Shown here: positions 1 to 33,035 of the stretch, piece by piece
Layout: the number at the start of each line of letters is the position of its first letter
Numbering within the stretch: position 1 is the first letter of the stretch
Assembly: GCF_003991155.1 (NCBI RefSeq)
Contig: NZ_CP031293.1
DNA: 64,000 bases
Strand: one strand, 5' to 3'
Origin: Escherichia coli
GTDB lineage: Bacteria; Pseudomonadota; Gammaproteobacteria; Enterobacterales; Enterobacteriaceae
Made by a program: the position numbers and the translations under genes
The notes under the pieces: generated by a model
Told to the model about the DNA's origin: nothing
Databases searched by the model: none
Seen by the model: only the letters and a program-made list of their open reading frames with translations

Positions 1-415
1 TCATGTGACCGCTGATAATCAGACGCAGATAATCGACGATAAAATCAAGCATGACGCTATCCGCAAGGATGCGTGGGTAGCTGGCGAAGATCTCGCTCTC
101 ACGGGGATTTTCAATATCACGTTCCAGCGAAAACATCCCCATCTGCCGCGATTTCGCCATCAACCGATAAAGCAGAGCCAGCAGATCCATATACATTGCT
201 TTGGTGTATTTGGAGCGACGAAACAGCAACGGCAGCGCCTTCAGCGTGCCTTTAATCGCTTTGCCATTATTGCCGACGATAAACGACCCAATCCCTGCAC
301 CGGCAATAATCACCAGTTCAGCGGGTTGATAGAGTGCTCCAAGGCTTCCACCGGTCATCAAATAACCGCCGAAAACTGTACCGAGAACAACCAGGTAACC
401 TAATAAGATAAGCAC
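1..415 (-). CDS. motA: Flagellar motor stator protein MotA, N-terminal part; the gene continues beyond the window start
   Basis: Reverse complement of 391-415 reads GTG-CTT-ATC-TTA-TTA-GGT-TAC-CTG (VLILLGYL), the recalled MotA N-terminus; the track ORF 5-403 (+) is its antisense. Synteny with flhC/flhD. Confidence 0.85.
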   Translation of the reverse strand, partial: MLILLGYLVVLGTVFGGYLMTGGSLGALYQPAELVIIAGAGIGSFIVGNNGKAIKGTLKALPLLFRRSKYTKAMYMDLLALLYRLMAKSRQMGMFSLERDIENPRESEIFASYPRILADSVMLDFIVDYLRLIISGHM

Positions 416-482
416 GACATCATCCTTCCACTGTTGACCATGACAGGATGTTCAGTCGTCAGGCGTTAACGCGCGATTGGGG

Positions 483-516
483 CAAAAAAAAGCAGCGGTA
501 CGTCGTTACCGCTGCT
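483..516 (-). terminator. Rho-independent terminator downstream of flhC
   Basis: Perfect 10-bp inverted repeat agcagcggta/taccgctgct (491-516) with a 6-nt loop, followed on the minus strand by a T-run (A-run 484-490 on plus). Confidence 0.6.
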
Positions 517-541
517 GGAATGTTGCGCCACACCGTATAAG

Positions 542-1120
542 TTAAACAGCCTGTACTCTCTGTTCATCCAGCAGTTGTGGGATAATATCGGCAGGATTCT
601 GGGAAAGTTTACGTCTTTTTACTGCCCGGGATGGCGGCTGACATAAGCTGCAGGCAAAGCTGCCAACAGGCTGGTGAGCGTGGGTAATAAAATTGCCGCC
701 GCAGCAGTTGCAGCTGGAAAGTTGCAGTAATCCACTTTCAACAAACCGTACCAATGTCCAGGCACGGGTTAATGCCAGCAGCGGTCCGTCTTCTGCTTGC
801 GGGCACTGTTCAAGGTATAAACGGTAGGCTTTGATCACCGCATCGACGCCATTACACAAGCCGGTTTTCAGTAAAAACTGCCATGCGTTACAGAACATTG
901 AAGCATGAACGTTTTGTTCCCAGGTCATAAACCAGTCGGTTGAGAATGGCAGCATGCCTTTCGGCGGTGGGCTTCCGCGTAGTTCTTTATAGAGTTTTAT
1001 CAGGCGTCCGCGACTTAACTGTGTTTCGCTTTCCAGCATCTGCAAACGAGCGCCCAGGGTGATCAATTCCATTGCCAGCTGAATATCCCGCGCTTCCTGA
1101 ACAATGCTTTTTTCACTCAT
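542..1120 (-). CDS. flhC: Flagellar master regulator subunit FlhC
   Basis: 192-aa ORF matching recalled FlhC, directly downstream of flhD. Confidence 0.95.
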
Positions 1121-1122
1121 GA

Positions 1123-1473
1123 TCAGGCCCTTTTCTTGCGCAGCGCTTCTTCAGGCTGATTAACATCATTCAGCAAGCGTGTTGAGAGCATGATGCCGGT
1201 ATGAATTTGCTGGAGATCGTCAACGCGGGAATCTTGCGTCAATTGAGTAATCGTCTGGTGGCTGTCAAAACGGAAGTGACAAACCAGTTGATTGGTTTCT
1301 GCCAGCTTAACCATTTGCGGAAGAGTCAGTGCCGCTAATGTTGTCGCCATTTCTTCATTTATGCCGAGACGAAACATAGCGGACGCTTTGTCCTGAACAA
1401 TCAGACGCTGTGCAAGTAGTAAATATGACAAGTTGATGTCATAAATGTGTTTCAGCAACTCGGAGGTATGCAT
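1123..1473 (-). CDS. flhD: Flagellar master regulator subunit FlhD
   Basis: ORF matches recalled FlhD; start placed at MHTSELL (116 aa), the track ORF begins 3 codons earlier. Confidence 0.9.
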
Positions 1474-1482
1474 TATTCCCAC

Positions 1483-2252
1483 CCAGAATAACCAACTTTA
1501 TTTTTATGCGGTCTCACCGCACCCCGTGATGTCGCCGGGAAGCCCCGGTAAAAAATAATTAGCATTAGAATAGTTGCGATAAGCTGCAATAAGCAGAACC
1601 ACCTTTTTGGTTTAATAAGTCCTTACAAATAGAAAGGGGTCTTTACACTTATCTAAGATTTTTCCTAAATCGACGCAACTGTACTCGTCACTACACGCAC
1701 ATACAACGGAGGGGGGCTGCGATTTTCAATAATGTGTGATGCAGATCACACAAAACACTCAATTACTTAACATAAATGTATAAGTCATACTTTTGTTTTG
1801 GGTGTATTTCAATCTGTTAAAAAGTTTTTCGCAACGCTAGCAAGCAAAAATGAAACAGGAATAATCGAAATGGGATGTTGCGCACAGTTAAAATAACTCA
1901 CCGTAAATAATCATCTGCTATAAATAATCACTTTCATGCAATACCAGATAAGCTATTTTTAAACAGACACTTACCGCACAACAAACTAATTAAATACAAA
2001 GAAAGGCAACAATCAACCTAATGTTAATAAAATGTTTTGCATATATTAACCACTTGTTTAATATGGGGAATCAGTACATTATTTTCTTATAAATACAGTT
2101 GAAATCATATGATAACCAAGAGTGATTGATTAATTGTCTTTACTAATGACCAGACTAATATTTACCTGTTTGACTGAGTTGGGATTGCGTCGTTTCTCCA
2201 TTAGGAGTAAAGCTTTAATGTCACCTGAAGTTCACAGAATAAGGAACAGGTT
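1483..2252. promoter_or_regulatory. Long AT-rich flhDC upstream regulatory region, divergent from uspC
   Basis: About 770 bp with no ORF, AT-rich, between flhD (-) and uspC (+); known from the literature as a heavily regulated region and IS insertion hot spot. Individual binding sites not mapped here. Confidence 0.6.
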
Positions 2253-2681
2253 ATGAGCTATAGCAATATTCTTGTCGCCGTTGCGGTTACACCGGAAAGT
2301 CAGCAACTGCTGGCAAAAGCGGTATCTATCGCCAGGCCAGTAAAGGGACACATCAGTTTAATTACTCTCGCTTCCGACCCGGAAATGTACAATCAATTAG
2401 CCGCGCCGATGCTTGAAGATTTACGCAGCGTGATGCAGGAAGAAACGCAAAGCTTTCTTGATAAGTTAATTCAGGATGCGGGGTATCCCGTTGACGAGAC
2501 GTTTATTGCCTACGGTGAGTTAAGCGAACATATTCTGGAGGTTTGTCGCAAACATCATTTCGATTTGGTGATTTGCGGTAATCACAATCACAGTTTCTTT
2601 TCGCGAGCATCCTGCTCGGCGAAAAGAGTGATTGCCTCTAGTGAGGTCGATGTGCTGTTAGTTCCACTTACGGGAGATTAA
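2253..2681 (+). CDS. uspC: Universal stress protein C
   Basis: 142-aa ORF matching recalled UspC (YecG); synteny. Confidence 0.9.
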   Translation: MSYSNILVAVAVTPESQQLLAKAVSIARPVKGHISLITLASDPEMYNQLAAPMLEDLRSVMQEETQSFLDKLIQDAGYPVDETFIAYGELSEHILEVCRKHHFDLVICGNHNHSFFSRASCSAKRVIASSEVDVLLVPLTGD

Positions 2682-2687
2682 CCGCTC

Positions 2688-6040
<3,353 letters not shown>

Positions 6041-8628: not shown

Positions 8629-9423
8629 GGTTCTCTCCAGCTTTAGTGTCGTTTTGTGTAGGGCAAAAACGAATGACATTCGTTAAATTAATCGGAAAAC
8701 AAAGCATTACCTTTTAACTAAAAGATAAGTGACTGTGTTGACATAGTTTTAGCGAGAAATTAATTCTCCATAGGAGAGCAATATCACATCGCAGAATTAC
8801 AGTGAGAACGTGCATAAATTTAGCGGGAAAAGACATAAGGAAAAGCCAATTTGTCTGACAAATTGTCTAGTGCACAGCAGATTAATCCATAAGATTAGCC
8901 TGGAAATCCTTGTTGTCTTTGGTACCCAGCGGGATGTCTTTTTTTTAACCAGTCAATAGGCCACATTACCTGGCGTTGAGTTTTTGCAATGGTGTAATAA
9001 CCGCAACTCAAAGATGTGGAAAAAGCGCGTCATTCATTTCGCCATTAATTATCACCGTGTTCATTAATTAACAGAACACGTATACTGAGAGCCATATCGC
9101 AAAAATGAAAAAACGTTTTAAAAAATCATTGCTTCATCATGAATTCAAATTCACCGATTAATATCAACAAGATACAAAAAGCACTATCATTAAAATTCAT
9201 TGCAGTTACATTGATTTCATCAATGAAATGTAAAAATATATAAACTTGATGATTTAAGCATTTTCTTATACCCGTTCAGACGTTATTCTTATTTCAGATC
9301 ATCGTCAGAATTGACTCCACGATCACATTTCGGACCGGCAGAAAGGAATTATTCTGCAAACAGTAATTATGGTGTTTTGATTTATCTTGCACCTCTCCAC
9401 TTCTGGATATAAGGATATTAGGT

Positions 9424-24438: not shown

Positions 24439-25770
24439 TTAGCCTTGTAACAGAGACAGAACTTGCTGCGGTACCTGGTTGGCTTTAGACAGCACGGAGT
24501 TACCCGCCTGCTGGATGATCTGTGCTTTCGACATGTTGGACACTTCGGTCGCATAGTCGGCGTCCTGAATACGGGACTGCGCTTCAGACAGGTTGGTAGT
24601 GGTGTTGTTCAGGTTGGTGATAGCGGAATCGAGACGGTTCTGCACGGCACCTAGAGAAGAGCGGAATTTGTCGACTGTTGCAATAGCTTTATCCAGAAGC
24701 GCCAGCGGATCCTCAGTTGAAGCACCTTCAAATTGCTCAGTCGCAGTTGTAGTTACCTTACCATTAGTATCAGTAACATCACTTAAATTCAGATCAGTTA
24801 ACTCAAGAGCTGTTGCTCCATTCTTAAGAATGTCTGCCGCATCACCAGCAGAATAGTTTTTGCCTTGAAGTGTGACGAAACCTTGAGCTGCGCCGTCTTT
24901 ATCTGCTGAAACTTTGATCAGCTGATCTGTTTGCTTGGCATCGTCAACACCGTTCGCATAATCATCATAAGTAACATCAATGGTGTTTAAGGTTACTTTA
25001 CCTGAAGCGGCATCAACAGAAGCAGCATAGAAGTCTTTACCTGACTGAACAACATAATCAGCTGTTGCCTTACCATCTTTATCAAGGATGTTGTGCAGCG
25101 ACAGGCTTGACGTATCGGATACACCCAATTTAGTTGCAATTGCTGCAGACTCATCAGTATTACCGAAGTTAACATCAACAGGTTTATCGCCAGCGTCTTG
25201 CGGGATAGATGTGATAGCATTGCTGACATTAAGAGAGTTTTTAGAAACTGAGAAGCCATTCAGCCCCAAAGTTGAAGAATCAATTTTCTTCAGATCGATG
25301 GAGATAGTTTGACCATCATTCGCACCAACCTGAATTTTCATTGAACCATCTTTGGAAAGAACATTAACGCCGTTGAACTGAGTCTGACCGGATACGCGGT
25401 CAATTTCATCGAGACGGGATTTGATTTCGTCCTGGATTGAAGATAGGTCAGAATCAGAGTTAGTACCGGTAGTGGCCTGAACGGTCAGTTCACGAACACG
25501 CTGCAAGTTGTTGTTGATTTCAGACAGTGCGCCTTCAGTGGTCTGCGCCAGAGAGATACCGTCGTTGGCGTTACGTGCGGCCTGAGTCAGACCTTTGATG
25601 TTAGAAGTGAAGCGGTTAGCAATCGCCTGGCCCGCAGCGTCATCTTTAGCGCTGTTAATGCGCAGACCAGAAGAGAGGCGCTCGATAGAAGTCGACAGCG
25701 CAGACTGGTTTTTGTTGATGTTGTTCTGAGTGATCAGCGAGAGGCTGTTGGTATTAATGACTTGTGCCAT
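24439..25770 (-). CDS. fliC: Flagellin, non-K-12 allele (443 aa)
   Basis: Conserved flagellin N-terminus (MAQVINTNSLSLITQNNINKNQSAL) and C-terminus (QVPQQVLSLLQG) flanking a divergent central domain; about 55 residues shorter than recalled K-12 FliC. Confidence 0.95.
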   Translation of the reverse strand: MAQVINTNSLSLITQNNINKNQSALSTSIERLSSGLRINSAKDDAAGQAIANRFTSNIKGLTQAARNANDGISLAQTTEGALSEINNNLQRVRELTVQATTGTNSDSDLSSIQDEIKSRLDEIDRVSGQTQFNGVNVLSKDGSMKIQVGANDGQTISIDLKKIDSSTLGLNGFSVSKNSLNVSNAITSIPQDAGDKPVDVNFGNTDESAAIATKLGVSDTSSLSLHNILDKDGKATADYVVQSGKDFYAASVDAASGKVTLNTIDVTYDDYANGVDDAKQTDQLIKVSADKDGAAQGFVTLQGKNYSAGDAADILKNGATALELTDLNLSDVTDTNGKVTTTATEQFEGASTEDPLALLDKAIATVDKFRSSLGAVQNRLDSAITNLNNTTTNLSEAQSRIQDADYATEVSNMSKAQIIQQAGNSVLSKANQVPQQVLSLLQG

Positions 25771-32631: not shown

Positions 32632-33035
32632 TAAGCCAGGAGACTATTGATCAATAATACTGCGTCATAAGAAATCTCTATTAGACAAAGTAGACGCTCC
32701 TTCCACATGCGCCACAAGAAACCTCTATTCCAGTGACACAATTACGCCTGATTATTTCCCTAGCCCGGAATATGAATAAAAACATCAACAAAGATTAAAT
32801 TATTCAAACGTTACTGTTGCGTCTGCGGTCGTAACAACAACCGACCTGGTGATGCGTGTTAAAGGAGACACTCTGATGTTCAGGGGGGTTATCACGTATA
32901 CGGATCGTGGATGGCAGAAAACAATCAGGATCAGGTATCCATTTTAAACCAGAAATTGAGTGAGTTTGCCCCATCCATGCCCCACGCTGTGGGATCGGAT
33001 GTAATTAAACAAGCATAGTCAACAGGTTACAAAAC

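Follow-up and report, generated by a model that had tools for sequence, protein, structure and literature searches.

An uninterrupted flhD-uspC control region in an Escherichia coli genome, colinear with the IS-excised region of K-12 reference strains

In laboratory lineages of E. coli K-12, the region upstream of flhDC is interrupted by IS elements: MG1655 carries IS1H (768 bp, insA5/insB5) and W3110 carries IS5 (1,195 bp) between flhD and uspC. The 198-nt flhDC leader is a known target of CsrA, several small RNAs and the antisense RNA AsflhD. IS5 recurrently targets a TTAA that occupies positions -96 to -99 relative to the start of flhD transcription, and IS elements located up to 476 bp upstream still stimulate expression (PMC5100188). 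IS insertions in this region raise flhDC expression and motility (PMC5100188; PMC5493358; PMC11237407). The AT-rich upstream DNA is reported to bind H-NS, LrhA, OmpR, Fur, IHF, MatA and YjjQ, RcsAB binds the region too, and a stress-destabilised duplex region found here attracts IS5 (PMC5493358).

The equivalent region was analysed here in a stretch of 64,000 nucleotides of E. coli DNA (the window), which starts inside motA and continues with flhC, flhD, the intergenic region, uspC and, on the minus strand, otsA/otsB. FlhD, FlhC and UspC all scored far above the curated cut-offs of their own NCBIfam equivalog models. The same gene order, motA-flhC-flhD / uspC / otsA-otsB, is found in the annotated genome of strain 2016C-3878 (NZ_CP029747.1), which matches the window over 49.8 kb at 99.994% identity, with 3 substitutions that all fall outside the flhD-uspC region; its FlhD is annotated as WP_001295647.1, the accession also carried by W3110 and MG1655. 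Full-length, intact open reading frames were present in the window for flhDC, fliA, fliZ, fliC, fliD, fliS, fliT, and fliE through fliR.

A sequence-only reading of this DNA had described a long, AT-rich and IS-free region of 770 bp upstream of flhD, starting at position 1483. The description was sound apart from the length and the left edge: position 1483 corresponds to an upstream in-frame GTG of a mechanically called open reading frame, while flhD starts at the ATG at 1471-1473, which gives the 116-aa FlhD of 2016C-3878, and the intergenic region is consequently 779 bp long (1474-2252). Its GC content is 35.0%, compared with 49.3% for the whole window, which places it among the lowest 0.7% of the 779-bp stretches of the window, and a local minimum of 27.5% is reached at 1901-2100. 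Of the 62 intergenic gaps annotated in the 50 kb of 2016C-3878 that match the window, with a median length of 55 bp, only one exceeds the flhD-uspC gap, namely the 795-bp araF-ftnB gap (window ~8629-9423), itself a regulatory region of unusual length. Among 779-bp stretches of the window, GC is lowest (32.3%) at ~53771-54549, a stretch that overlaps the intergenic DNA between yedR(drpB) and a porin gene (53852-54368) as well as the beginning of the porin open reading frame. That porin frame (54369-55472, + strand) is intact, encodes 367 aa of the OmpF/OmpC/PhoE family and scores below the cut-off of each equivalog; its ortholog yedS is a pseudogene in K-12.

Aligning the window with MG1655 and W3110, as the sequence-only reading had proposed, enabled a direct comparison with the interrupted alleles. 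Against MG1655, two gap-free blocks were obtained that overlap by 8 bp, the duplicated target CATAAATG (window 1771-1778), and against W3110 two gap-free blocks surround the duplicated TTAA (window 1767-1770). After excision of the IS elements, both references are exactly 779 bp long, 23 substitutions and 0 indels separate them from the window, and no IS fragment was seen in either alignment. MG1655 has the same flanking genes and is colinear over 779 bp once IS1H and the 8-bp duplication are removed (97.0% identity), but it carries the 768-bp element at the equivalent of 1771-1778, and its 23 substitutions include a C versus T at 1735. W3110, MC4100 and DH10B share the locus and the K-12 backbone, but carry the 1,195-bp IS5 at the TTAA equivalent to 1767-1770. 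Both target sequences occur once in the window. The earlier statements that K-12 laboratory lineages carry IS1 or IS5 at this place, that such insertions raise motility and that the present strain keeps the uninterrupted regulatory architecture thus agree with the two references, with the published reports cited above, and with a region that is colinear with the IS-free form and holds each target site once. The region belongs with the canonical uninterrupted flhDC-uspC control regions, and is neither an IS-activated allele nor an IS remnant; 2016C-3878 and at least 29 other isolates are 100% identical to it over the 779 bp. I am highly confident that it represents the ordinary, ancestral and uninterrupted divergent control region of E. 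coli. The features of the locus are collected in Table 1.

Table 1. Positions of genes, regulatory features and segments of differing variability at the flhDC-uspC locus of the window.
Feature	Position	Strand	Basis or remark
flhC CDS, 192 aa	542-1120	-	NCBIfam equivalog NF009365, 285 bits; annotated flhC in 2016C-3878
flhD CDS, 116 aa, ATG 1471-1473	1123-1473	-	NCBIfam equivalog NF002783, 155 bits
AsflhD antisense RNA equivalent	1452-1671	+	transferred from MG1655 b4839 annotation
flhD-uspC divergent intergenic regulatory region, 779 bp, 35% GC, uninterrupted	1474-2252		gap-free colinearity with IS-excised MG1655 and W3110
flhDC mRNA leader, 198 nt, predicted transcription start 1671	1474-1671	-	MG1655 AsflhD end 1978395 corresponds to window 1671; variable columns 3.5% (10 strains)
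Promoter and CRP segment	1672-1770		variable columns 5.1% (10 strains)
Putative -10 hexamer TACAGT	1678-1683 (-12 to -7)	-	read from sequence
Putative -35 hexamer TTGTAT, 17-bp spacer	1701-1706	-	read from sequence
cAMP-CRP site TGTGATCTGCATCACA, perfect consensus, centred at -71.5	1735-1750		sequence; position relative to predicted +1 at 1671
Unoccupied IS5 target TTAA	1767-1770 (-96 to -99)		occupied in W3110, MC4100, DH10B and similar strains; PMC5100188
Unoccupied IS1 target CATAAATG	1771-1778 (-100 to -107)		duplicated around IS1H in MG1655
Upstream AT-rich DNA	1771-2017		variable columns 4.5% (10 strains)
Variable block, most AT-rich, 26% GC	2018-2175		variable columns 15.8%, 25 in 158 bp (10 strains)
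77 bp adjoining uspC	2176-2252		variable columns 0% (10 strains)
uspC CDS, 142 aa	2253-2681	+	NCBIfam equivalog NF007512, 282 bits; annotated in 2016C-3878

The frequency of interrupted alleles was then assessed across complete E. coli genomes, 5,421 of 5,426 of which contain the flhD-uspC region. The two halves of the region were queried separately so that insertions of IS1 size show as splits, and a large insertion was counted in ~181 of the 5,426 genomes (3.3%, an approximate value, the genome counts being summary numbers of BLAST places and not a per-genome parse, and insertions shorter than ~700 bp or within ~28 bp of the query boundaries escaping the split count), with 138 genomes split in the half next to flhD and 43 in the distal one. 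The whole-region query and one of the half-region queries gave identical totals (5,539 places; 5,271 records at ≥80% coverage), which is read as coincidence; the numbers agree with one another when insertions the size of IS1 and of IS5 are simply added up, with the counts still approximate. Queries specific for the junctions found ~48 genomes with the IS1H junction of MG1655 and ~55 with the W3110-type IS5 junction, the latter including MC4100, DH10B, MC1061 and HMS174. Nearly all of these ~103 genomes are named K-12 or are K-12-sized (~4.5-4.7 Mb), and most carry a laboratory-strain label. Other large insertions account for roughly 1.4% of genomes. The IS-free state is the norm of the species (~97% of complete genomes), from which the K-12 reference strains deviate. 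Since it is the default and most of the interrupted genomes are K-12 laboratory derivatives, the absence of an IS element says little about this particular strain.

Insertions of IS1 were also observed in three non-K-12 genomes that were inspected, at other positions of the AT-rich region. In EC19, isolated from a pig, IS1 is flanked by a duplication at the equivalent of window 1877-1885, and in NCCP12480 it lies at the equivalent of 1850-1859. In TUM13881, IS1 is found at the equivalent of 2023/2024 and abuts yecH. Everything from uspC through ftnA, ~9 to 10 kb in the window, is absent from this strain, a pattern that resembles an adjacent deletion mediated by IS1.

Positioning the promoter relied on the published IS5 site: TTAA at -96 to -99 falls at 1767-1770 of the window, which would place +1 at 1671, 198 nt from the flhD ATG. 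The hexamers and the transcription start in Table 1 were transferred to this strain from K-12 knowledge and annotation. Judging from position and from the known regulation of flhDC, a weak sigma-70 promoter (-35 TTGTAT, -10 TACAGT) would start transcription at ~1671 and would require the binding of cAMP-CRP to the consensus site, whose centre is at -71.5, while proteins on the AT-rich upstream DNA would hold expression down or tune it, and the leader would be the target of post-transcriptional control by the regulators named above. In K-12 laboratory strains, IS1 or IS5 located ~100 bp upstream of the promoter raises flhDC expression, which has not happened here; that such elements may act by separating the promoter from the repressing DNA upstream is my own reading. 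A consensus promoter and terminator scan did not detect the flhD promoter and returned a single promoter-like site on the + strand (1865-1894), fewer than in shuffled sequences. This miss is to be expected for a weak, activator-dependent promoter, as its putative hexamers are weak. In Salmonella enterica, ~72% identity was found over window 1476-1753, which spans the leader, the core promoter and the CRP site, and no similarity was detectable over the distal ~500 bp, so that only the promoter-proximal third is conserved between the genera; the restriction of the match to these elements agrees with the promoter layout proposed here.

Two small RNAs annotated in MG1655 map to this part of the window. 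AsflhD starts 22 nt inside flhD, corresponding to window 1452 (PMC9600491), and the equivalent of MotR, formed by the 3' end of flhC and the downstream flhC-motA spacer, lies at 484-578 on the minus strand according to the MG1655 annotation. Neither gave an Rfam match in a search of window 1-3000.

One of the four substitutions that separate the window from K-12 in the flhD-proximal 305 bp falls within the cAMP-CRP site. The + strand of the window has T at 1735 (-64) and K-12 has C, which in K-12 results in TCACG instead of the consensus TCACA on the flhD sense strand. Among 10 aligned strains, the weakened half-site is found in K-12 only, and the window and the 8 other non-K-12 strains have the perfect consensus. 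A 60-mer spanning the site was matched exactly by 2,962 genomes in its window form and by 399 in its K-12 form; the window carries the commonest version of the promoter and K-12 a minority one. Since the site is consensus in the window and weakened in K-12, an uninterrupted region need not mean poor motility of the kind seen in IS-free K-12.

This difference leads to a reading in which the consensus half-site would confer stronger cAMP-CRP activation and, in this strain as in most E. coli, adequate flhDC expression without an IS element, the IS-free window would not be functionally equivalent to IS-free K-12, and the dependence of K-12 on IS elements would stem in part from its own weakened site. 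I hold this reading only tentatively. The confinement of TCACG to K-12 among the 10 aligned strains and the distribution of the two 60-mer types are consistent with it, and single-base changes in the cAMP-CRP region have reportedly been found by Fahrner and Berg in 2015 to stimulate flhDC in K-12. Natural isolates also vary in motility, with many swimming well only in porous media (PMC11836070). On the other hand, leader SNPs at 1513, 1618 and 1636 together with trans-acting factors could dominate over the CRP site, and poor motility or none at all has been reported for about half of natural isolates (PMC3116916), although the consensus-type promoter stretch is the commonest. The corresponding statement about K-12 itself, namely that its poor motility without an IS element is partly a lineage peculiarity caused by the degenerate half-site (TCACG, -64), and that the majority consensus site would suffice without an IS element in strains like this one, appears rather unlikely.

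Variation along the region is uneven (Table 1), and 17 of the 23 differences between the window and K-12 fall in the block at 2018-2175. This block occurs as two deep haplotypes, one in K-12, BL21 and O103 and one in ST131 and the rodent isolate, and the window allele is a mosaic of both. Over the distal half of the region, only 41 genomes reach ≥99% identity with the window.

A comparably rare allele was observed at fliC, which is intact in the window (443 aa, 24439-25770, minus strand). Its variable central region was found in 146 of 5,426 genomes, 42 of them at ≥99% identity, and no serotype-labelled strain from which an H-antigen type could be read was present among the matches. The number of genomes with this fliC allele (42) is about the same as that with the distal intergenic allele, so that the window comes from a small clonal group. 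Further along, at ~32869-33018, the near-identical genome annotates a 150-bp integrase pseudogene fragment adjoining fliE, a remnant of a former integration site.

Several searches addressed whether the flhD-uspC region contains a decayed remnant of an IS or MITE that the sequence-only reading would have missed because of its small size or its divergence. AT-rich intergenic DNA is where such remnants accumulate, and two weak signals could be taken in this direction: one inverted pair of 13 nt with 85% complementarity, which is at chance level and has one arm inside flhD, and an 11-nt match to the IS5 of W3110 (E = 0.53), likewise a chance match and the best similarity to IS1 or IS5 obtained anywhere in the region. 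No other IS-like terminal inverted repeats were found in the region, nor was a transposase open reading frame, all frames being ≤40 aa with no Pfam family above the gathering threshold; the sequence-only reading had made the same two statements, and both hold. In a scan of seven small frames, a sub-threshold Pfam match to HPIH (E = 0.058) was dismissed as chance. No Rfam match was obtained in window 1-3000 at E ≤ 1.

Length and copy number argue against a remnant as well. In all 8 of 8 diverse strains examined (O157:H7 EDL933, O25b:H4-ST131, BL21, O103:H2, the rodent isolate and others), the region measures 779-780 bp, and in an alignment with 9 other sequences the lone indel is 1 bp, in STEC316. 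The region occupies a median of 1 and a maximum of 2 places per complete E. coli genome, in contrast to the IS1 junction query with a median of 10 places per genome. A sensitive blastn search of 72,556 plasmid records returned 13 matches, one from Bacillus and the others from E. coli or Salmonella, the latter with lengths of 0.26-4.9 Mb that mostly far exceed ordinary plasmid size. An IS fragment would match many genuine plasmid records, and the region is essentially absent from them, which counts against an IS fragment. Taken with the constant length and the single copy per genome, a hidden remnant is highly improbable.

The Bacillus record, HM037272.1 (Bacillus thuringiensis CT43 plasmid pBMB0558), contains ~1.16 kb of E. 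coli K-12 W3110-type DNA at 2897-4060 with 98% identity, made up of an IS5 end, distal flhD-uspC intergenic DNA and uspC, the last annotated as UspC in the record. Such DNA almost certainly stems from contamination by the cloning host or from a chimeric assembly.

Equally improbable is a former IS element lost by precise excision, which would make the IS-free state a reversion. Such an event leaves no scar, and K-12 stocks in which cells carrying IS5 coexist with cells lacking it, as well as isolates that have lost the upstream IS5, are documented (PMC11237407; isolate JS111, PMC5100188). The 779 bp are nevertheless the same, letter for letter, in at least 30 independent isolates of human, cattle, chicken, dog and wastewater origin, and with ~97% of genomes uninterrupted an ancestral absence is far more parsimonious.

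The IS hotspot, the K-12 alleles and their effect on motility are already extensively published, and the IS-free finding, that of an ancestral and uninterrupted control region, is correct but ordinary and already known. Mildly useful by-products are the estimate that ~3% of complete genomes are interrupted, over half of them by K-12 laboratory alleles, and the observation that the CRP site of K-12 is a weakened minority variant. If the proposed contribution of this K-12 peculiarity were true, it would help to explain why IS insertions at the hotspot are rare outside laboratory K-12. The comparison provides a useful caution when K-12 motility regulation is extended to natural isolates.
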